From: Candidatus Wolfebacteria bacterium
GTDB taxonomy: Bacteria > Patescibacteriota > Minisyncoccia > UBA6257 > UBA9933
Assembly (NCBI GenBank): GCA_016214005.1
Contig: JACRPK010000006.1
Span: forward strand, 17,719-81,718
DNA length: 64,000 nt
Direction of reading: 5' to 3'
Shown here: one piece after another, positions 18,739-52,577 of the stretch
Layout: every line of letters starts with the position of its first letter
How positions within the stretch are numbered: position 1 is the stretch's first letter
Program-made: the position numbers and the translations under genes
The notes under the pieces: model-generated
What the model saw: only the letters and a program-made list of their open reading frames with translations
What the model was told of the DNA's origin: nothing
The model's database searches: none

Positions 18739-18786
18739 AAACAAGGCAATCAGAGCCTTGTTTTTTTGTTTGTCCCTTGTTTAACT

Positions 18787-18848
18787 CCTGTTTGCCTCCT
18801 GTTTGACTCCTGTTTGACTTCCGGGTTTTGGAGGTGATAAGATAAATT
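18787..18848 (+). promoter_or_regulatory. TA-module leader: tandem CCTGTTTG(A/C)C repeats, TTGACT, GGAGGTGATAAGATAAATTT (copy 1 of 3; also 19386..19437 and 19996..20063)
   Basis: The same leader precedes three toxin-antitoxin modules. Direct repeats x2-4. Confidence 0.5.
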
Positions 18849-18849
18849 T

Positions 18850-19110
18850 ATGGAAAAATTAAACACAAACACATCTTTTTATTCAATAATTATTGAAGCC
18901 TGCGAAGAGGGCGGATATTTTGCTTATTGTCCTATATTGCAAGGCTGTCATGCCGAAGGAGAGACTTATGGAGAAACAATAGATAATATTCGCGATGTTA
19001 TTAAGACTCATCTTGAATTGCGAAAAAAACATAAAGAATTGACTTCTTTTATTAAAGTTAAAAACAGATCAGATATAAATATTCAAATTCCTGTTCCAGT
19101 GGGAAATTAA
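18850..19110 (+). CDS. hicB: HicB-family antitoxin, 86 aa
   Basis: YSIIIEACEEGGYFAYCPILQGCHAEGETYGETIDNIRDVI is characteristic of HicB/UPF0150. Confidence 0.7.
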   Translation: MEKLNTNTSFYSIIIEACEEGGYFAYCPILQGCHAEGETYGETIDNIRDVIKTHLELRKKHKELTSFIKVKNRSDINIQIPVPVGN

Positions 19111-19116
19111 TTTTTT

Positions 19117-19359
19117 ATGGGCTTGAAATTTCCTGTTGTTAATTATCGCGATACAACAAAAATAGCCAAGAAACTTGGTTTTTATTTTTATCGTCAGGCT
19201 AAGGGCAGCCATGAAATTTGGAGAAGAGATATAGATGGCAGACAGACAACTATACCAAATCATGGCAGTAAAATTATTAAGCGCCGAACTTTAAAAGCAA
19301 TTTTTGAAGATTTTCAAATTTCGGCAGAGGAATTTTTTAAATTAAAAAAACATAAATAA
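19117..19359 (+). CDS. hicA: HicA-family toxin (mRNA interferase), 80 aa
   Basis: KGSHEIWRR…TTIPNHGSKIIKRRTLKAIFED matches HicA/YcfA. Confidence 0.7.
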   Translation: MGLKFPVVNYRDTTKIAKKLGFYFYRQAKGSHEIWRRDIDGRQTTIPNHGSKIIKRRTLKAIFEDFQISAEEFFKLKKHK

Positions 19360-19427
19360 CGGCATTGGGTGTTCTTTTATTTGATTCCTGTTTGACTTCC
19401 GGGTTTTGGAGGTGATAAGATAAATTT

Positions 19428-19655
19428 ATGAATACCATTACTATTCCAAAAAATTTAACCAGAGGGGCGGAGCTTGTTATAATACCCCGCGATGAGTATG
19501 AGGAATATTTGCAGTTGCGTAAAATTATTTCTGTTGTAAAAATGACTTCGGCTCAAAAACGCGATCTAGAACAGGCGAGGAAAGATTATAAACAAGAGAA
19601 ATATATTACTCTTGAGCAGCTTGAATATGAACTGGGTATTACACATAAGAAATAA
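19428..19655 (+). CDS. putative antitoxin (AbrB/MazE- or RHH-like), 75 aa
   Basis: Small ORF upstream of, and overlapping, a RelE/ParE-like gene. Preceded by the shared TA leader. Confidence 0.5.
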   Translation: MNTITIPKNLTRGAELVIIPRDEYEEYLQLRKIISVVKMTSAQKRDLEQARKDYKQEKYITLEQLEYELGITHKK

Positions 19656-19881
19656 GACAAAAAAAGAATTTTGCCGTTTTCCCATGAAAGATCGATGCTA
19701 TATTGCCGAGGCGCTTCGTGAAATAAAAGAGAACCCTTTCTTTGGCGATATTATAAAATTGGATGTAGAGAATTTTTGGCGTCGTCGCATTGGCGCTTAT
19801 CGGATTTTTTACGAAATAATTACCAGCAAAAAAATTGTTTATGTTTTTAGAATTGAACGGCGAAATTCAAAAACTTATTAG
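19612..19881 (+). CDS. RelE/ParE-family toxin (start uncertain; ATG at 19684 also possible)
   Basis: C-terminal YRIFYEIITSKKIVYVFRIERRN matches the RelE/ParE signature. Confidence 0.55.
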   Translation: MSSLNMNWVLHIRNKTKKEFCRFPMKDRCYIAEALREIKENPFFGDIIKLDVENFWRRRIGAYRIFYEIITSKKIVYVFRIERRNSKTY

Positions 19882-19888
19882 TAATATA

Positions 19889-19992
19889 ATGGAAAAATTA
19901 AACACAAACACATCTTTTTATTCAATAATTATTGAAGCCTGCGAAGAGGCGCGAAAAAAACATAAATAACGGCATTGGGTGTTCTTTTATTT
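19889..19992 (+). pseudogene. deleted hicBA remnant: first 60 nt of hicB fused to the 3' end/downstream flank of hicA
   Basis: 19889-19950 is identical to 18850-18911. 19955-19992 matches 19337-19380. The conceptual ORF is only 26 aa. Confidence 0.6.
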
Positions 19993-20063
19993 AACTCCTG
20001 TTTGCCTCCTGTTTGACTCCTGTTTGACTTCCGGGTTTTGGAGGTGATATATTAAAATAAATT

Positions 20064-20312
20064 ATGAACATTATTAAGCCAAAATTATCTTATGGTCGAC
20101 GGCTTCCTCTCCTAGTAGAAAAAGGGGAAGATAATTTTTATGTGGTTGAATGTCCACTTTTTGAAGGTTGTTACAGCCAGGGCAAAACCCTTGACGAGGC
20201 TTTGCATAATATTCGCGAGGTTATAGGGATAATTCTTGAAGAGAAGATTGCCAGAGAAATTCTAAAAAATTATAATCCCGAAGAAATAAGCCTTCATACT
20301 ATTGCGGTATAA
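20064..20312 (+). CDS. hicB: HicB-family antitoxin, 82 aa
   Basis: FYVVECPLFEGCYSQGKTLDEALHNIREVI. Confidence 0.7.
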   Translation: MNIIKPKLSYGRRLPLLVEKGEDNFYVVECPLFEGCYSQGKTLDEALHNIREVIGIILEEKIAREILKNYNPEEISLHTIAV

Positions 20313-20314
20313 AT

Positions 20315-20533
20315 ATGATAAAATTACCGATTATTTCTGGCCGTCAACTTATTAAACTTTTATCTAAATTAGGTTATCGCGAGGTTCGCCAGCGCGGCAG
20401 CCATATTCGTTTATCTTGTTTAAATAGAAAATCAGTAACTGTGCCGAATTACAAAGCTATAGATAGATCTTTGCTTAGAAAAATATTGAGAGATTCTGAA
20501 TTGAGCATAGATGAATTTTTAAATCTTTTTTAA
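20315..20533 (+). CDS. hicA: HicA-family toxin, 72 aa
   Basis: RGSHIRL…VTVPNYKAIDRSLLRKILRD. Terminator follows at 20575-20616. Confidence 0.7.
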   Translation: MIKLPIISGRQLIKLLSKLGYREVRQRGSHIRLSCLNRKSVTVPNYKAIDRSLLRKILRDSELSIDEFLNLF

Positions 20534-22888: not shown

Positions 22889-22986
22889 ATATTCCGGATA
22901 TGGGGTTTTCCCCGTATCCGGATTTTTTATTCAGATTTTTTTATTTTCGCTTGACACTATTTATTAAATATCAGAAAATTATATTA

Positions 22987-23352
22987 ATGAATAAATTTAT
23001 TTTAACTATTATAGCGGCTTTATTTATTGTTGGCGTTAATAATGTTTTTGCTGTTAGCGGTGGAATCACTTCCGGTAGCGGGCTTACCAACCCTCTTGGA
23101 GCAGGAGCCACTATCTGGACTCTTCTTGACGGCTTAATTGGCTTTCTTATCAAAGTCGGATCTTTTATCTTGCCGATTATGGTTTTATATGGCGGTTATT
23201 TGATTTTGTCGGCTGGCGATGATCCGAAAAAAGTTGAAAGCGGGAGAGAAGTGATTCTCTGGGCTGTTGTCGGATTTATTATTATCTTGTGTTCATGGGG
23301 AGTTATTTATATAATTGGAGATGTGTTGGGAATCAGTATTCCGACGCAATAA
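22987..23352 (+). CDS. VirB2/TrbC-like small 2-TM secreted protein (paralog 1 of 5)
   Basis: Signal peptide, then two hydrophobic helices separated by a charged loop (SAGDDPKKVESGRE). Pattern shared with 23769, 24135, 25324 and 25960. Confidence 0.4.
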   Translation: MNKFILTIIAALFIVGVNNVFAVSGGITSGSGLTNPLGAGATIWTLLDGLIGFLIKVGSFILPIMVLYGGYLILSAGDDPKKVESGREVILWAVVGFIIILCSWGVIYIIGDVLGISIPTQ

Positions 23353-23356
23353 AATT

Positions 23357-23767
23357 ATGAAAAAACAAAAAATTAAAAAATCAAAAATGACATTGGATAA
23401 ATTGGCGTTGATAATAAAGCAAGAGATTGACACCAAGGTGTCCAAAGACGACTTAAAAAATGAATTACAAAGATTTGCCACCAAAGACGACTTAAAAAAT
23501 GAATTACAAAGATTTGTCACCAAAGATGATCTTAAAAACTTTAAAATAGAATTTAAGTCTGAAGTTGCCGATGAAATTAAATCAACGATTAAAGAAGAAC
23601 TCACTGATAATATAAATAAATTATTTACCAAAGCTGATATTATCATTTCTAAATTGGAAAAAAAAGAACAGGAAGATTTGATGCACACACAAGCTCATAG
23701 AAGAATCAATGACACTTTGGAAATTCACGATAAAAAAATAAAAAATTTAGAAATAAAAATAAATTAA
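23357..23767 (+). CDS. hypothetical coiled-coil protein with internal 14-aa tandem repeat (KDDLKNELQRFxTK)
   Basis: 42-bp DNA direct repeat x2.5 at ~23440-23545. Lys/Glu-rich. Confidence 0.45.
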   Translation: MKKQKIKKSKMTLDKLALIIKQEIDTKVSKDDLKNELQRFATKDDLKNELQRFVTKDDLKNFKIEFKSEVADEIKSTIKEELTDNINKLFTKADIIISKLEKKEQEDLMHTQAHRRINDTLEIHDKKIKNLEIKIN

Positions 23768-43131: not shown

Positions 43132-43164
43132 TAAATTTTCTTGCTATCACTAGTGATAGCAAGA

Positions 43165-43545
43165 AAAGAGAGGGGGAAAAGATGGGGGAATGAAGAAAAA
43201 ATGAGGGGAAAAGATGGGGGGGGGAGAAAAGATGAGAAAATAAAGAAAAAATGGGGAAAAAAATAATAAAATTTTTTATTATCACTGATGATAACATGGA
43301 GAAAAGATATGGAAAAAAGAGAGATAAATAAAGAGAATATAAGAGAGAAAAAAGGGGGGGAGAAGAAGGTAATTGATGGGAGAGAAAATAATAAAATAAA
43401 TTAATCATTGCGCGGTATTGTTATAATTAATAAAAAATAGTAATTGATTAAAAAATAGATGCTATCACCAGTGATAGCGCTAAAAAGAAAAACAAGAGGG
43501 GGAGGGAAAACAAAGAATAAATTTAAGAATATTTAAGAATAAAAA
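43165..43545 (+). repeat. purine-only low-complexity tract with G-homopolymers and GAAAAGATGGGG repeats
   Basis: ~380 bp almost devoid of pyrimidines on the + strand. Contains G9 and G8 runs. Operator copy 5 is at 43461..43478. Confidence 0.6.
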
Positions 43546-43550
43546 ATAAA

Positions 43551-44540
43551 ATGGTTTATAAAAAGGAGAACAATTTAATGGAAAATAATTTTAATTTAGT
43601 TAAATATAAAAAATATGCCGCGGTTTTTGGAATTTTGGCGGCGATTTTTGTTATAACAAGCGCGGCGATGGCGTATTTATGGCAGAAAGCAGAACGAGTT
43701 AATGAAAAAGGAATAATGCGGAGTGATAAATTTAATTTACTCAATCCGGCGAGAAAATTTGTAAAACAGGAAGATTTGATTATCAATTTTCAGCCTCTGC
43801 GGAATTATTTGAATGACAAATACGAAGCCGACCCGAATGTTTCCATTTATTTTGAATACTTGCCGACAGGTTCTAACATATCAATAAATAAAGACGCGGA
43901 GTTTTGGCAGGCGAGCTTGCTCAAATTGCCGGTTGCGTTGGCAGTGGCGAAAAAAATAGAAAAAGGCGAGTGGAAATGGACCAATGAACTGGTGATTATG
44001 ACGTCTGATAAAAATGGCGGGTTTGGCGATTTGTATAAGAAGCCGATCGGAACAAAACTTACGATTGAAAAATTAGTTCAGCTTTCCCTTTCGGAATCCG
44101 ACAATACGGCGAATTTCGTTTTGGTAAGAAATTTAGAGCCTTCGGATTATCAGGATATTTATGATCATCTTGGCTTAAGCGATTTTTTGTCAAATGAAGG
44201 CAAAATAAGCTCCAAGAAGTATTCAGTAATGCTGCGGGCGCTTTACAATTCTTCTTATCTTTCGGATGAAAATTCTCAAAAGCTTTTGGATTTTTTAAAT
44301 GAAACGTTGTTTAAGGAATATCTTGGCAGCGGCTTGCCCGATGATATTGAATTTTCTCATAAAATCGGCGTAAGCGACGACCAAAAAGTTTTTCTTGATT
44401 CCGGAATTGTCTTTGTCAAAAATCGTCCGTATATTTTGACTGCTATAATTAAAACTCAAAATAAAGAATATGCCGAAAAAGTTATGAAAGATATTTCAGA
44501 AAAAACTTATCAATATATTATGAATTATAATAGTAAATAA
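43551..44540 (+). CDS. membrane-anchored serine beta-lactamase-like (class A / PBP-fold) protein
   Basis: SxxK (ASLLK), SDN (SESDNTA) and K(T/I)G (HKIGVS) in the canonical order, after an N-terminal TM. Confidence 0.55.
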   Translation: MVYKKENNLMENNFNLVKYKKYAAVFGILAAIFVITSAAMAYLWQKAERVNEKGIMRSDKFNLLNPARKFVKQEDLIINFQPLRNYLNDKYEADPNVSIYFEYLPTGSNISINKDAEFWQASLLKLPVALAVAKKIEKGEWKWTNELVIMTSDKNGGFGDLYKKPIGTKLTIEKLVQLSLSESDNTANFVLVRNLEPSDYQDIYDHLGLSDFLSNEGKISSKKYSVMLRALYNSSYLSDENSQKLLDFLNETLFKEYLGSGLPDDIEFSHKIGVSDDQKVFLDSGIVFVKNRPYILTAIIKTQNKEYAEKVMKDISEKTYQYIMNYNSK

Positions 44541-44597
44541 ATTTGATGAATAAAATTTTAAAACGATGTATAATTTAAAAATAATGCAAATTCAACG

Positions 44598-47500
44598 ATG
44601 ATTTTTTTAAAAAAAACAATTAAATCGATTTTCATATTTTTGATGATTTTTGGCTTGGCATTTTCTAATTTGCCTTATGACGCGGCAATGTTAGCGTTGC
44701 AATCTTATGTTAAAAATCGCAATGTTGTCGATAAAATCTGGCTGACTAGTAATGACACAAATGTGGTTGATAAATTCGTGCCGTTTGAAAATGTAATCAG
44801 AAATTTGAAAATTAAAGACGCTTTGGCTGTGTCAAACGGCGATGGCAAGATATTTTACAGCATTTCCGCCAATGCCACCCCGAGTACGCGCGATTATATT
44901 TCATCAACCAATACTTTTAATGTGGCAGCAACAACGGTTGCTGGCGTAACAGCTTTGCAGGCGGTAACCAAGGCGTCGCCGACGCAAGACGAAATGATCG
45001 CCGGTTATGTGAATTCAGCCGGCACTTTGCAGGTAATGTGCTGGAATGGCGCTACGTGGAGCAACGAATGGTCAGTAGCGGTTGGCGGTACAGGAACAAC
45101 TAGAAGATTTGATATTGCTTATGAAACTAATTCCGGCGATGCGATGGTGCTTTATTCTACGAACGTCGGCACTACAAATGAACTTGCTTATCGCACAAAG
45201 CCTGGGGCATCAGTTTGCGGAAGCGCAAATTGGTCAGCAGCGACGAATCTTGATCCAGTGCGAACAACAGGCATCGTGCATTGGGTAAAAATGGCTTGGG
45301 ATAGGCGAGCGGCTCAAAATTTAATCACTGCTATCTGGGCGGACGCTAATGCCGGCCTTTCGGCAATGGTCTGGTCGGGGACCGCATGGGGGAATGAGCC
45401 GACGGCTGCGCTTGAAACAGCTTTGGAAATAGTTGCCGCAGGACAAGATGTTGAGTCGTTTGACGTGGAATATGAATCGCTTTCCGGCGATGTAATGATA
45501 GTGCGCGGGTCTGGGGGAACAAATGGCACAAATGGAGGATATTATTCGGTTTGCACGGGCGGAACATCCACTTGCGTATGGGGGACTAGAACCGCAATGC
45601 CGACTATTTTAGACGATGTTACTCATCTTGATATTTCCGCTGATCCGAATTCCGATTCAATTCTTTTTGGCGCGATTGGCAATGCTGGGAGTGACTTATC
45701 GATAGGCGTTTGGTCGGGATCTGCGTGGACTAATACCGCCAATGCAGATATATCTTGCGCTACGCCTCTTGCGGGAACAAAATTTGTTTCTACCGGCTGG
45801 CTTATTTCAGGCGCCAATACCAGAGGAGTGTTGGTTTATTATGACTCGGCAGCCACAAACATTGGTTGGATGACCTTAAGCGGCACCACTTGGACCGCGC
45901 AAACTGACTGGGCCCCGACTCCGGTTTTCGGCGTTCAAAAAAATTATGATATTAAAATGGACCCGATTAACAAAGACAGGTTGATTTTTACCGTTAATGA
46001 TGCCAATTCTGATATATTTGCCAAACGTTTGATCTTATCGGGCACAACATTTACATGGTCTAATGCCGACGGCGGAGTAGCGATTGAAGCCAATACCGGT
46101 TCAGCCGCATATAAAACTTTTGATTTTGAATATAATAGATATATTCCAGCGCCGTCAGCATCTTTAACAATTGGCGCGACAGCCGGTTCTAAGACAATAA
46201 ATTTGGATTCCGGCGCAGCCAGCCAATATGCGAACACGACAACTTGCAACAGCGCGGCGACTTGCAGCGCGTTCACGCTTTTATTAAATACCGGATCAGA
46301 AACAATCACTTCAATAAAAATTACGGAAACCGGCACTGCTGACGCGACAAACAATTTGGCAAATCTTGCTCTTTTTTATGACACTGACGGCAATTATTCC
46401 AATGGCGTGACCGGTCAATATGGAACAACGGTTGCGGCGTTTACGGCTGAAGCGGCAAATGTTTCCGGATCTCTCGCGATTTCCGCTGGCACCACTTATT
46501 ATTTTTATGTTCGTTTTGATTTGGCAAAAACCGGAACATATCCTTCGGGAGGACAGACAATAAATTTTCAGATTGCGGCTAATGCCGATGTCGGCACATC
46601 CGGCGCTCCGACAAAAACCGGCGCTCCGGCAACTTTGGCAGGCGCAACAACTATCAGTCCGAATGCTACGGGAATTACTTATACAACCGGCGGCGACGGA
46701 GGAATATCCGGAAGTTCGGCAACAATTTCCGGCTATGGTTTCGGAACACCGGCAGCAGGAGCGGCCCGCGAAGATTGCGCAGCCGCGACAGTTAATTATG
46801 GCTGTGTGAAATTTATTGTTGGCGGAACAACCAATGTGGCAAACGCCAATATTTCTTCTTGGGGTAATACGCAAATTGTTTTTAGCGTGGCAACTAATTT
46901 GGTAACAGAAGGCGGAGCCAGCGCTGTTGAAGTGAGAGCCGCCAATCAAGCTGACGCAACGCCGCTCACTTATTATGTTTATCCGAATATCACATCCTTG
47001 ACTGTGCCAACGGCTGTGGCTAATGCGGCTCGGGAATATTCAGCGTCTGATTCTGAAGGAATTTTTACCGCCAATGGAGATCATTTTGGATCTGCTGGTT
47101 CAGTAACAATTTTAGGCTCAACCGCTACTCAACAGACAACAGCTGCTTGCGCAGGCAGCGCTTATCAAACGACTTGCGTCGGGTTGCAAGCGCCGACAGC
47201 TATTGCTGATAATTCTTATACTGGAAATATTGTTTTAACGAGGACATCGGACTCAAAAACAAGCACTTACGCTGGCTTTAGGATTTTGCCGCGTATTGTC
47301 AGTTTAAATCCTTCTTCGCAGTCTGTTGGATCGGCAATAGAAATTATTGGTAATCATTTATGTCAAAATGGAGGGGTTTGTCCTTCGGCTTTTGACGCAA
47401 ACAATAAAGCCACTTTTTATAATGCGGTTGACGCAACAGCATTAAATTCCTGGACTAACGGCGATTCTCTTCTTACCGGCATTAATGTTAATGTGCCGAC

Positions 47501-48665
47501 TGGCGCGCAAACCGGCAATCTTATAATTAAATCAAATGGCTATGACTCAAACGCAGCGGCTTTCAGCCTTCTTTCGACAATTCCCAGCGATCCAAATGTT
47601 TCTGGAAATAGGCAATATCAATCTGATAATTCAACAATAATTTCTATCGGCGGATATGCCAGTAGCAGTTCGGTTATTTTAAAAGCCGATATTAGCGCCG
47701 GATTAAATATTAATATGGCTTTGCAGGTTGAAGTTCAATCGGTTGGCGCGGCTTTTACTTGCGGAGCGGGAAATTGCGCCAGCGCTGTTGAAGGAACGGT
47801 TGTCGGCGGCGGAGCTTGCACGCTTTGCACTTCTCTTTTAAACGCTAAAATCACTTTAACCGGAATTTCTGACGGGCAAAAACATTGGCAAGCTCGAGTA
47901 AGAAACACGACAACAAATGAATATTCTAATTGGGCAAGTTTTGGCGCGAATGCTGAATCGGTTGCGGATTTTATAATAGACACTGCGGCGCCCGTTATAA
48001 CTGGTCCGTCATCAAGCAATATTCTGTCAAATTCCGCTACCATAAGCTGGACAACCGGCGAATCGTCTGACACGCGCGTTCAATACAATAAAACAGGAAG
48101 CTTCGGCGCTTGTTCAACTGACTGCACAACAATAACCGATGCGGTTCCGCCGGGATCGACTAATCATAGCGTTAATTTGAGCAACTTGGATTCAGCAACA
48201 ACTTATTATTATCGCGTTCGCTCAAAAGATGCGGCTGGCAATGAAGCGATAAGTTCTGTGAATAATTTTATAACTGTCAGCGTTGGCAATCCGGCGAAAA
48301 CAACAAAATTTTATATTGCCGGCGTCGCTGGATCAATTACAGCGGCAAGCACAGCCTCATCAACTTTTTCTGTTTTGGCGCCTGAAACATCGGCAACTGT
48401 TCAGGGGGCTTTTGTGGAGATCTCTGGCATATCCAATAGCGGCGGAACTAATAATATTCAAGTTTGGGTTAATTCTCAGGCCACGAAAACTTATGCGATA
48501 AACGCATCATCTAAAACATTTTTTAGAATTATTTATTACGTGTCTTCGGGAAATTTGAATCTTAATGATAGCCCGACAATTAATGTGTTTTATATCAGTC
48601 CGCAAAATTATAATATTTTTATAACATCGGCAAAGGTCATCACAACATATACTTACGCGCCGTAA
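44598..48665 (+). CDS. very large secreted surface protein (1355 aa) with Ig-like repeats and C-terminal fibronectin type III domain
   Basis: Signal peptide. Thr/Ser/Gly/Ala-rich beta repeats. FN3 signature …ISWTTGESSDTRVQYNKTGSF…TTYYYRVRSKDAAGNE. Confidence 0.6.
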   Translation: MIFLKKTIKSIFIFLMIFGLAFSNLPYDAAMLALQSYVKNRNVVDKIWLTSNDTNVVDKFVPFENVIRNLKIKDALAVSNGDGKIFYSISANATPSTRDYISSTNTFNVAATTVAGVTALQAVTKASPTQDEMIAGYVNSAGTLQVMCWNGATWSNEWSVAVGGTGTTRRFDIAYETNSGDAMVLYSTNVGTTNELAYRTKPGASVCGSANWSAATNLDPVRTTGIVHWVKMAWDRRAAQNLITAIWADANAGLSAMVWSGTAWGNEPTAALETALEIVAAGQDVESFDVEYESLSGDVMIVRGSGGTNGTNGGYYSVCTGGTSTCVWGTRTAMPTILDDVTHLDISADPNSDSILFGAIGNAGSDLSIGVWSGSAWTNTANADISCATPLAGTKFVSTGWLISGANTRGVLVYYDSAATNIGWMTLSGTTWTAQTDWAPTPVFGVQKNYDIKMDPINKDRLIFTVNDANSDIFAKRLILSGTTFTWSNADGGVAIEANTGSAAYKTFDFEYNRYIPAPSASLTIGATAGSKTINLDSGAASQYANTTTCNSAATCSAFTLLLNTGSETITSIKITETGTADATNNLANLALFYDTDGNYSNGVTGQYGTTVAAFTAEAANVSGSLAISAGTTYYFYVRFDLAKTGTYPSGGQTINFQIAANADVGTSGAPTKTGAPATLAGATTISPNATGITYTTGGDGGISGSSATISGYGFGTPAAGAAREDCAAATVNYGCVKFIVGGTTNVANANISSWGNTQIVFSVATNLVTEGGASAVEVRAANQADATPLTYYVYPNITSLTVPTAVANAAREYSASDSEGIFTANGDHFGSAGSVTILGSTATQQTTAACAGSAYQTTCVGLQAPTAIADNSYTGNIVLTRTSDSKTSTYAGFRILPRIVSLNPSSQSVGSAIEIIGNHLCQNGGVCPSAFDANNKATFYNAVDATALNSWTNGDSLLTGINVNVPTGAQTGNLIIKSNGYDSNAAAFSLLSTIPSDPNVSGNRQYQSDNSTIISIGGYASSSSVILKADISAGLNINMALQVEVQSVGAAFTCGAGNCASAVEGTVVGGGACTLCTSLLNAKITLTGISDGQKHWQARVRNTTTNEYSNWASFGANAESVADFIIDTAAPVITGPSSSNILSNSATISWTTGESSDTRVQYNKTGSFGACSTDCTTITDAVPPGSTNHSVNLSNLDSATTYYYRVRSKDAAGNEAISSVNNFITVSVGNPAKTTKFYIAGVAGSITAASTASSTFSVLAPETSATVQGAFVEISGISNSGGTNNIQVWVNSQATKTYAINASSKTFFRIIYYVSSGNLNLNDSPTINVFYISPQNYNIFITSAKVITTYTYAP

Positions 48666-49340: not shown

Positions 49341-50287
49341 ATGAATTTTGATTTAAGAAAAAATCAAAAAAAAACGTTAATTTTTGCGATTTCCGCGGCA
49401 ATTTGTTTTATTTTTTTGGCGGCAATAAATGTTTTTGCCGTTAATAATCAGATCAAAACCACCGAATCATTCATCATCGGCTCAGACGTTCAAATTTCAA
49501 CAGCCACTAATGCCGCTGTCAATCTTTACATCGGCGATAATCTGGCGGGCATCACCAATCCGGTAAAATCAGTTTATTTTATTATCTCCGGAATATATAC
49601 AGACACCGGCGCTGGCGGAACATTAGAATTCAAAATTAACGATAATCCTTCTTCTTCCAAAATATTCACTTTGCCGACAGCGGGGACAACACCCACTCCT
49701 TTTGAAATAATTTACAAAGACGATTCAAATACAATCAATTCAACTTCAGCCGGAAGCTATGCTTATACTCTCAACATTATTCCCACCAATATCACTATTT
49801 CCAGTTTGAGCGGGAAAATGGAGGAGACGCAATCACTATTTCCAGTTTGAGCGGGAAAATGGAGGAGACGCACAGATATAAGCCGCCATCTTGCGGCATA
49901 GGCTATCAGCCAACTGGCACAATTGAATCTTCGGTTTTTGACACTGGCGCGGCAAACGGTGTTGGATTTAATTTTATAATGGCGTCCGGCACCACGCCTT
50001 TTGGCACAAAATTCAGAGCGCAAATTGCCACATCAAATAATTCCAGCGGACCGTGGAATTATTTAGGTCCAAGCTGCACAAACAGCGATTATTATTTTGA
50101 TGCCGGATTTGCTCCTTTTCCTGGAATAGGGGATTCTCCTGCAACGGCTGAAATTGGCTGCCAGAATAATCATAATAATAAAAGATATTTTAAATATAAG
50201 ATTATTCTTTGTTCTGCTAACGATTGTGTTAGTCAAGGAACAGATACGCCCCAGATCGATAAGATTATTATAAATTGGTCTCCATAA
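49341..50287 (+). pseudogene. secreted protein gene split by a 41-bp perfect tandem duplication (49791..49831 = 49832..49872)
   Basis: The two ORFs (49341..49850 and 49847..50287) are contiguous once one repeat copy is removed: …NITISSLSGKMEETHRYKPPSCGIGYQ…. Confidence 0.6.
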
Positions 50288-50402
50288 TTCTTTCCGAGTT
50301 TTTCCCCTTGACATTCTATGGGTATTTAAGTTCTAATCAATATAGAAACTTTCAATAAAAAATAAGAATTGTGAAAAGCATTTTCAAAGCAAGGAGGAAC
50401 TT

Positions 50403-50789
50403 GTGTCTGATATAAAGATTCTTTTTGTTGATGATGACGAAATGCTTCGTATGATAATTCCTTCCTGTTTAAAAGGAGTTTTTGGAGGAAAATATCAGGT
50501 AATTTGCGCCGCAGATGGTTTTGGGGCGCTGGAGATTGTTAAGAATGAAAAAGGTATTCGGCTTGTAATCACTGATTGTGATATGCCGAAAATGAATGGC
50601 CTTGATTTGGATGCTAATATTGAAAAATATTATCCTGATATCAAAGTTATTATGATGTCAGGAATGCACCACGAAGAAGATATAGCAAACCGCGGACTCC
50701 ATTGTTATTTTATTTTAAAAGGAATTGATGGCGATAGAAAGCTCTGCGATGCAATTCGGGAATTATTGGAAAACACGCCGGCGGTCTGA
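50403..50789 (+). CDS. stand-alone response-regulator receiver domain protein (GTG start)
   Basis: ILFVDDDE…D…ITDCDMPKMNG…K. RBS AAGGAGGAAC. Confidence 0.65.
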   Translation: MSDIKILFVDDDEMLRMIIPSCLKGVFGGKYQVICAADGFGALEIVKNEKGIRLVITDCDMPKMNGLDLDANIEKYYPDIKVIMMSGMHHEEDIANRGLHCYFILKGIDGDRKLCDAIRELLENTPAV

Positions 50790-50831
50790 CCGCCGGTTTT
50801 TCTTTTGTTTTTTTGGAGTTATAATTTAAAA

Positions 50832-52577
50832 ATGTTAAATCGCGAGCTTGCCAAAATTTTTCGCAATATGGCGTTTTATCTTGAAATGGAAGGTGTTTCT
50901 TTTAAACCGCAGGCTTATGAAAAAGCGGCTGATGTAATTGAGTCTTTGTCGCAGGACATTGAAAATGTTTATAAATCCGGCGGTTTGAAATCTTTGGAAG
51001 AACTTTCGGGAATCGGGAAAAACATTGCGGCTCATATTGAGGAATACATAAAAACCGGAAAAATAAAAAATTATTCGGATTTTAAGAAAAAAATTCCAGT
51101 TGATATTGATGAGCTTTCGCAGGTTGAAGGTTTGGGTCCAAGAAAAATAAAAGCTCTTTATTCCGAATTAAAAATCAAAAATTTAATTGATCTTGAAAAA
51201 GCGGCAAAGCTTGGGAAAATAAGGAATTTGCCGCAATTCGGCTTGAAAAGCGAAATAAATATTTTAGAAAGTTTGGAGTTTTTAAAAAAAAGCAGGGGCA
51301 GATTTTTGTTGGCGGAAATTTTACCAGTAGCCGATAAAATCATTGATAATCTTAAAAATTTAAAAGAAATCAGAAGAGATGTCTTGGAAATTTCTTTTGC
51401 CGGATCTTTAAGGCGCAGAAAAGAAACTATCGGCGATGCGGATATTTTAATTGCCGCTGCAAATCCCGCGGCTTCCAGAAAAATTATTGGCAGCTTTTTA
51501 AAATTTCCCGGAATTGCAAAAATTTGGGGCAAGGGCGAAACAAAAATCTCCGCAAGAATGGAGGATGGCTTTGACATTGATATCAGGATTTTAGCGCAGG
51601 AAAGTTTTGGCGCCGGACTTCAATATTTTACCGGATCAAAAGAGCATAATATAGTTTTGCGTAAAGCCGCCATTGGAAAAGGGCTAAAGCTCAATGAATA
51701 CGGGCTGTTTAAGGGGAATAAAATGATTGCCGGCAAAACGGAAAAAGAAATTTATCAGGCTTTAGGTATGGATTATATAGAGCCGGAACTTCGTGAAAAT
51801 AGCGGCGAAATTGAAGCGGCGTTAATCGGAGAATTGCCGAAATTGATAAATAATAAAGATATTTTGGGCGATTTGCATATTCACTCAAATTGGAACGGCG
51901 GAGAAAATTCAATTGAAGAATTGGCAAAAGAAGCCATGGGTATGGGTTATCAATATATTGGCATTTCCGATCATACGAAATTTTTAAAAATTGAAAACGG
52001 GCTTGACGAAAAACAATTGGAAAAGCGAAATAAAGAAATTGACAGGCTCAATTCGGGATTTAAAATTCAGGATTCAGGATTCAGGATTTTGCGGGGCTGT
52101 GAAGCGAATATAATGCCCGATGGCTCAATTGATATTAAAGATTCAGTTTTAAAAAAATTAGATTATGCGATTGCGGGAATCCATCATCAAATGAAAATGA
52201 ATGAAAATGAAGTGACAGAAAGAATTATTAAGGCGATGAAAAACAAAAATGTTGATATTATATCCCACCCAACCGGAAGAATTTTAAAAGCTCGCGAGGC
52301 TTATGAAATTGATTTTGATAAAATTTTGGAAGCTGCCAAAAAAACCGGCACAATTTTAGAAATTAACGCATATCCATCAAGATTGGATTTAAACGATATC
52401 AATATCAAAAAAGCCAAACAAATGGGCGTAAAAATGATAATTAATTCAGACGCTCACGAAAAAAGCCAAATGCGATTTATAGAATACGGCGTTTTTCAGG
52501 CGCGCCGTGGCTGGGCAGAAAAAAAAGATATTGTTAATTGCTGGCAGATTGACAAGTTGAAAAGATTTTTTAAGTGA
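50832..52577 (+). CDS. polX: DNA polymerase X family protein with C-terminal PHP domain
   Basis: HhH motifs, Pol-beta nucleotidyltransferase GSLRRRKETIGDADILIA, PHP histidines (DLHIHSNWNGG…). Confidence 0.8.
   Translation: MLNRELAKIFRNMAFYLEMEGVSFKPQAYEKAADVIESLSQDIENVYKSGGLKSLEELSGIGKNIAAHIEEYIKTGKIKNYSDFKKKIPVDIDELSQVEGLGPRKIKALYSELKIKNLIDLEKAAKLGKIRNLPQFGLKSEINILESLEFLKKSRGRFLLAEILPVADKIIDNLKNLKEIRRDVLEISFAGSLRRRKETIGDADILIAAANPAASRKIIGSFLKFPGIAKIWGKGETKISARMEDGFDIDIRILAQESFGAGLQYFTGSKEHNIVLRKAAIGKGLKLNEYGLFKGNKMIAGKTEKEIYQALGMDYIEPELRENSGEIEAALIGELPKLINNKDILGDLHIHSNWNGGENSIEELAKEAMGMGYQYIGISDHTKFLKIENGLDEKQLEKRNKEIDRLNSGFKIQDSGFRILRGCEANIMPDGSIDIKDSVLKKLDYAIAGIHHQMKMNENEVTERIIKAMKNKNVDIISHPTGRILKAREAYEIDFDKILEAAKKTGTILEINAYPSRLDLNDINIKKAKQMGVKMIINSDAHEKSQMRFIEYGVFQARRGWAEKKDIVNCWQIDKLKRFFK

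Follow-up and report, generated by a model that had tools for sequence, protein, structure and literature searches.

Known contingency loci in bacteria carry many copies of units of 1-9 nt. Repeated sequence in a deposited genome can also come from its assembly. Chen et al. (2020, Genome Res; PMC7111523) described a duplicated overlap at the joins of IDBA-UD scaffolds, reported wrong repeat numbers in repeat-containing genes and counted 13 local assembly errors in one 1.13-Mb scaffold of the Patescibacteria (CPR). We analysed a stretch of 64,000 nt (hereafter, the window) of contig JACRPK010000006.1 from the Candidatus Wolfebacteria MAG GCA_016214005.1, in which a 41-nt tandem duplication interrupts the gene of a probable surface protein. 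Our results indicate that this duplication is most probably not biological.

The 41-mer unit ATCACTATTTCCAGTTTGAGCGGGAAAATGGAGGAGACGCA is present in two abutting copies in which 41/41 bases are identical, confirming the perfect 41-bp back-to-back repeat that a preliminary description had placed at 49791-49872. TRF gave it a score of 164, with a period of 41 and 2.0 copies. The features of the locus are as follows.

49791-49831, + strand: copy 1 of the 41-nt unit; it codes for I151-T163 of the restored protein and also contains bases 1 and 2 of the H164 codon (ITISSLSGKMEET-H)
49832-49872, + strand: copy 2, suspected to be a scar in which a contig overlap was appended a second time; the graph branch base 49873 follows directly on its end
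49341-49850, + strand: upstream ORF of 169 aa, with a signal/anchor helix and D1, then 6 out-of-frame residues (QSLFPV) and a stop; it ends in GKMEETQSLFPV followed by the stop codon
49847-50287, + strand: downstream ORF of 146 aa, which begins MSGKMEET and comprises the D2 domain; no signal peptide
49341-50287, + strand: whole gene, encoding a 301-aa protein (TM/signal helix, D1, D2) once one 41-nt copy is removed

The unit is flanked by CCACCAAT on the left and CAGATATAAG on the right, and the 31-mer spanning the junction of the two copies (49817-49847) is AATGGAGGAGACGCAATCACTATTTCCAGTT. The edges of the duplication are blunt, with a T before the unit and a C after it versus A and A inside. 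Microhomology, the expected trace of slippage, is therefore absent from the boundaries (0 nt; T/A at the left edge, A/C at the right edge). There are no Ns near the duplication in the deposited scaffold. No other exact tandem duplication with a unit of at least 14 nt occurs in the 64-kb window, and ∼1 Mb of 69 related MAG loci contained none with a unit >18 nt, which excludes a chance origin. A search of the JGI metagenome contigs for the 41-mer gave 0 matches.

The claim that the duplication breaks one gene also held: it separates the 169-aa and 146-aa ORFs, and homologues span the junction gap-free. The TTG start of the 146-aa ORF (49847) overlaps the TGA stop of the 169-aa ORF (49848-49850). 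As had been proposed, removal of one copy restores a single ORF, but its product has 301 aa and not the 315 aa announced, a figure that is the sum of 169 and 146. In the protein search, the sole near-identical match was the 169-aa fragment itself, deposited at NCBI with the same sequence as MBI4993606.1 ('hypothetical protein HZC33_01430', Candidatus Wolfebacteria) and encoded on an 84,097-nt contig; in a GTDB scan, the best match was only 54% identical. The restored protein gave E values of 1e-137 to 1e-60 against >80 proteins, and >100 database matches span its junction, essentially all of them from Patescibacteria MAGs or metagenomes. It aligns end to end with 24 aligned homologues, without a gap at the junction. 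Of the columns of this alignment, given as residues of the query, 20 are invariant and 23 nearly so, and the restored protein keeps all of them. The C-terminal family block NNKRYF[RK]YK...C..C...TP...V.W.P is likewise conserved, and the segment encoded by the unit sits in the conserved block P[ST].[IV]T[IV].GLG.K..ETHRYKPP.CGG. The ancestral state is clearly an intact gene.

No Pfam match was obtained for the restored protein. Its AlphaFold2 model (mean pLDDT 85) consists of a helix at residues 6-34 and two all-beta domains, the beta-sandwiches D1 (∼aa 38-166) and D2 (∼aa 170-301), for which a PDB fold search returned only generic beta-sandwich or jelly-roll matches with TM scores of 0.2-0.3. 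The product had been called secreted, and this is plausible from its sequence, since the N-terminal hydrophobic helix of residues 6-34 is followed by the family motif VFA/V. The restored protein is a member of a Patescibacteria-specific family of predicted surface proteins of SP-D1(-D1)-D2 architecture, which is unnamed and without a Pfam entry.

Upstream of the split gene are found PilC-like and pilin-like genes, a gene for a 1355-aa FN3-containing surface protein (44598-48665) and then that of a 220-aa protein of no known function; a response regulator and PolX are encoded downstream. The 1355-aa protein carries a module of the same type.

48222-48662, + strand: D1-like module at the C-terminus of the 1355-aa surface protein, 28% identical to D1 of the split gene

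This D1-type module terminates in TTYTYAP and a stop, resembling the end of the first D1 copy in the homologues that possess two. In a second Wolfebacteria MAG, GCA_016219775.1 (L073 10001-13459 versus window 49341-52577), a 399-aa protein has a D2 that is 78% identical and another N-terminal part, and its gene also adjoins those of PolX and the response regulator. The combination of a similar D2, a different N-terminal part and the same neighbours indicates that D2 is a module shuffled among surface proteins at a conserved locus.

Repeats of other kinds occur elsewhere in the window. The region starting at 18766 contains three two-gene cassettes resembling toxin-antitoxin pairs (18850-19359, 19428-19881 and 20064-20533), each preceded by a conserved element of ∼70 nt ending in TTGACTTCCGGGTTTTGGAGGTGATAAGATAAA; the last of these elements ends at 20056. 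The elements at 18766-18846 and 19987-20056 contain ∼4-5 tandem 11-nt units (TGTTTGACTCC), and the middle one (19355-19424) one or two degenerate units. Moreover, 19882-19949 repeats the first 68 nt of the gene starting at 18850 with 96% identity. An in-frame 39-nt repeat (23442-23538; 2.5 copies, 94% identity) lies in ORF 23315-23767, where it encodes repeats of the KDDLKNELQRF type; this ORF overlaps the end of ORF 22900-23352. Finally, a purine-rich 32-nt repeat (AAGAAAAGATGAGGGGAAAAGATGGGGGAAGG; 43161-43236, 2.4 copies) is intergenic and upstream of a beta-lactamase-family gene (43551-44540). The independently assembled contig L001 (see later in the text) begins at 43138, just ahead of this repeat, with a 30-nt palindrome-like sequence.

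Duplication of D1 is the rule among the relatives of the split gene. Among the top 33 homologues, 32 have D1 twice in tandem (period, 138-143 aa), and in 8 of these 32 proteins the copies are at least 95% identical to each other. In four related genomes, the exact DNA runs common to both copies reach 215, 288, 352 and 376 nt, with periods of 417-426 nt.

L007 6574-7342, L011 1100-1895, L009 10111-10818 and L005 10205-10845: near-identical tandem D1 loci, with DNA runs of 215-376 nt
P0002, P0008, P0010, P0011, P0014, P0015, P0020 and P0024: proteins with near-identical D1 copies

In the homologues, the second D1 copy starts after a linker ending in NEK, at the residue aligned to I38 (NQ/IKTTESF in the window), and the two copies stay alike until about THRY, where the 41-nt unit ends. 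The genes with a tandem D1 are only 40-60% identical between lineages. On the basis of these sequences, the near or complete identity of the copies suggests that this surface-protein module evolves in concert or is duplicated recurrently. Versions of the gene with one D1 also occur in the family, some of them in k=31 Logan assemblies; in short-read MAGs, some of the one-D1 versions may be collapsed assemblies. The presence of near-identical tandem D1 copies would explain a misassembly of the locus.

We then considered the pipeline from which the window originates. The locus-tag series and the SRA run numbers led us to infer that its MAG belongs to the groundwater set of He et al. 2021 (PMC7906910). 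Of the related locus tags, HZA37 and HY249 apparently denote NC_groundwater MAGs, and HZB04 corresponds to GCA_016219775.1, recovered from run SRR12113407. He et al. used 150-nt paired reads with inserts of 400-600 nt, which they assembled with MEGAHIT 1.2.9 under default parameters (kmax 141) and the IDBA-UD scaffolder; no local error correction is described, and scaffolds <1 kb were dropped (PMC7906910). The scaffold name of L004 contains '141', as in the names of MEGAHIT k141 contigs. By default, the final k of MEGAHIT is 141 and the maxk of IDBA-UD is 100, and the kmax of the MEGAHIT local assembly is 41. The length of the unit equals 141 minus 100, the final k of MEGAHIT minus the maxk of IDBA-UD; it also equals the local-assembly kmax. 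No exact 41-nt tandem duplication was detected in ∼115 kb of other uncurated NC_groundwater scaffolds (L004, L006, L025, L039, L049, L061 and L073), a small sample of low power, and no second one elsewhere in the window. Thus, a systematic trimming error is not demonstrated. As a separate observation, an unrelated MAG (JBBUBH010000031.1; L058 10216-10425) has a 100-N gap with an identical 55-nt sequence on both sides; here, a contig overlap of k-mer length was clearly left unmerged by the scaffolder.

Logan assemblies provide a view of the same locus that is independent of this pipeline. In these, SRA runs are assembled at k=31, the output 31-mers are all distinct and contigs >150 nt are reported (PMC12424806). 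[quoted passage not shown] Their ends are nevertheless informative when set against the D1-coding segment of the gene.

49481: end of Logan contig L001, run SRR12113407
49986: start of Logan contig L002, run SRR12113407
49843: start of Logan contig L003, run SRR12113395
49452-49831, + strand: D1-coding segment S, which runs from the first base of the I38 codon to the second base of the H164 codon (380 nt when the unit is counted once)

L001 ends 29 nt beyond the first base of the I38 codon, and L003 starts 29 nt before the last base of S (49843 in copy-2 coordinates); the initial 31-mer of L003 extends to 49873, one base beyond copy 2. The breaks from two different runs thus match the boundaries of the repeat unit of the family to the nucleotide or the codon. 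To interpret them, we built toy k=31 de Bruijn graphs. With a true 41-nt duplication, the right contig starts at 49843, the left one ends at 49820 and no break appears at 49481. With a single copy of the unit and S placed in two contexts, the breaks fall exactly at 49481 and 49843. Since both models give a break at 49843, the coincidence of the L003 start with this position does not discriminate between a scar and a real duplication, whereas the L001 break at 49481 is explained by the two-context model only. The models also predict the end of the left-hand Logan contig, at 49820 if the duplication is real and at 49831 if it is not. These data led us to infer that S occurs in two sequence contexts in the sampled community.

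The L002 start at 49986 has another likely cause, strain variation. A co-occurring Wolfebacteria paralogue (P0085, L073/L074) was rejected as the origin of this break, the exact runs of only 23 and 28 nt being shorter than k-1. In addition, L001 772-1849 shows 10 differences from window 43909-44986, clustered where the beta-lactamase-like gene lies and where the giant surface-protein gene begins; over 6.3 kb, L001 is otherwise identical to the window. These differences indicate that closely related strains co-occur in the sample.

We consider it probable that copy 2 was left by the assembly pipeline, as the scar of a contig overlap that was not merged where the graph branches; one D1 may also have been collapsed. 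The preliminary description had listed an assembly artefact as one of three options, and it is the best supported of them, owing to the pipeline used, to the blunt and perfect copies and to a position exactly at the branch that ends the repeated domain: it is the final 41 nt of S that are duplicated, and their end coincides exactly with this branch. The 100% identity, the 0 nt of microhomology and an otherwise intact conserved gene fit a mechanical concatenation. The branch would arise since S has at least two contexts in the sample. The second is most probably provided by another D1, almost identical and in tandem within this gene, an arrangement shared by most homologues; a co-occurring strain or paralogue that shares S is the alternative. 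An exact repeat of ∼380 nt exceeds the length of the reads (150 nt) as well as the largest k (141) and could not be resolved by MEGAHIT. Two short-read contigs would then meet at the branch with a terminal k-mer in common and be joined without removal of the full overlap, so that the last 41 nt of the left contig are written twice. If the tandem D1 copy is real, the deposited gene would also be short by ∼420 nt, one collapsed D1 copy. The two-D1 gene would read GGAGGAGACGCA, then a linker encoding roughly (H)RY[AV]PPSC.DG...NEK, then ATCAAAACCACCGAATC; a loop contig with the linker and the second D1 would measure ∼0.3-0.6 kb and be discarded by the 1-kb cut-off. Both the making of this join by the scaffolder or the assembler and the true D1 copy number are proposals of this reconstruction. 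However, several points speak against a scar. A real duplication predicts the L003 break as well, and MEGAHIT could correctly assemble a true 82-nt tandem duplication from 150-nt reads. No second 41-nt duplication was detected in the scaffolds of the same project, and genes with one D1 exist in nature. With full identity across the 380 nt of S at k=141, the pipeline should have made two joins and left two scars, and one is seen. Finally, the L001 break could stem from a strain variant instead of a second D1 copy.

The main competing explanation is a very recent 41-nt duplication, fixed or at high frequency in the Wolfebacteria population, that frameshifts the gene and represents a young pseudogenisation; of the two products left, one would be secreted with D1 alone and the other would carry D2 but no export signal. 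This corresponds to the 'recent duplication or pseudogenisation' of the preliminary description, which survives as a rather unlikely alternative, less supported than a scar. It accounts directly for the presence of the duplication in a deposited scaffold with no Ns nearby and for the start of L003, which falls on the very position at which a genuine 41-nt repeat forces a break in a k=31 graph, and it agrees with the lack of further 41-nt scars in the ∼115 kb of scaffolds from the same pipeline. Moreover, the intact 301-aa allele was not found in a collection of 15 billion proteins, but this absence is uninformative because products of cut genes are not stored there (the partial products of L003 and L002, used as positive controls, are absent) and k=31 contigs break at this place. 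A real duplication leaves the L001 break at 49481 unexplained. Its edges are without microhomology, the gene is otherwise intact with its conserved columns all retained, ∼1 Mb of related loci contains no perfect duplication of this kind, and the locus, with its near-identical tandem domain repeat, is a known assembler trap.

A reversible phase-variation switch, in which an episymbiont would turn a surface protein on and off by gaining and losing the 41 nt through slippage or recombination, we regard as very improbable. Two perfect direct repeats could in principle delete precisely and restore the frame; the surface-type gene adjoins genes for a giant surface protein and type IV pili, and its family has repeat dynamics at the level of the domain. 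However, there are only two copies of a 41-nt unit, versus the many copies of much shorter units in the contingency loci mentioned above; no comparable repeat exists at this site in the 24 aligned homologues or in related loci; and alleles with 1 or 3 copies were not found in protein or DNA collections. Every point against a real duplication also counts here. The on/off switch of the preliminary description is thus unsupported. A duplication both real and reversible at the D1/D2 boundary, in a family with near-identical D1 copies, would amount to repeat-driven variation or silencing of CPR host-contact proteins, for which we see little prospect. Finally, a functional split gene, with both ORFs translated through TTGA coupling or a programmed -1 frameshift into two subunits or a full-length protein with a 13-14-residue insertion, is extremely improbable: the overlap of the TGA stop (49848-49850) with the TTG at 49847, followed by an ATG at 49859, speaks for it, but no Shine-Dalgarno-like sequence precedes the TTG, the D2 fragment would be without an export signal, all homologues are single polypeptides, and programmed frameshifting is ruled out by the absence of a slippery heptamer.

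If copy 2 is a scar, the deposited MAG and MBI4993606.1 misrepresent a conserved CPR surface-protein gene, which is truncated there and may lack a whole domain copy, and it would be wrong to take such blunt, k-mer-sized duplications in scaffolded MAGs for pseudogenes or switches. If the duplication is real, an episymbiont would have lost the function of a surface protein through a young mutation of an ordinary kind, which would be of modest interest. A by-product of more interest is the family itself, in which D1 is held as near-identical tandem copies in many Patescibacteria and whose members are probable host-contact proteins.

Compared with the CPR surface proteins encoded near type IV pilus loci, the restored protein has the same N-terminal signal/anchor helix and all-beta sandwich domains; here, however, no Pfam family and only generic fold matches are available, so no specific function can be assigned. 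Like frameshifting tandem duplications and slipped-strand loci, this locus has the ORF of a surface protein interrupted by a direct repeat of a length that 3 does not divide, and a precise deletion could revert it. It differs from these duplications and from contingency loci by the absence of microhomology, the two copies, the long unit, the lack of detected polymorphism and a repeat that is not conserved in relatives. As for collapsed tandem repeats in de Bruijn assemblies, the D1 runs of the homologues, up to 376 nt, exceed the reads and k, whereas the second D1 copy of this genome is proposed and not seen, and one-D1 genes also exist. In the scaffolding error of the L058 type, Ns part the copies, whereas there are none here. 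A further likeness is to the scaffolding errors described for MAGs (PMC7111523): as in those, a perfect duplicate of k-mer scale lies at a branch, in a repeat-containing gene of an uncurated, IDBA-UD-scaffolded MAG.
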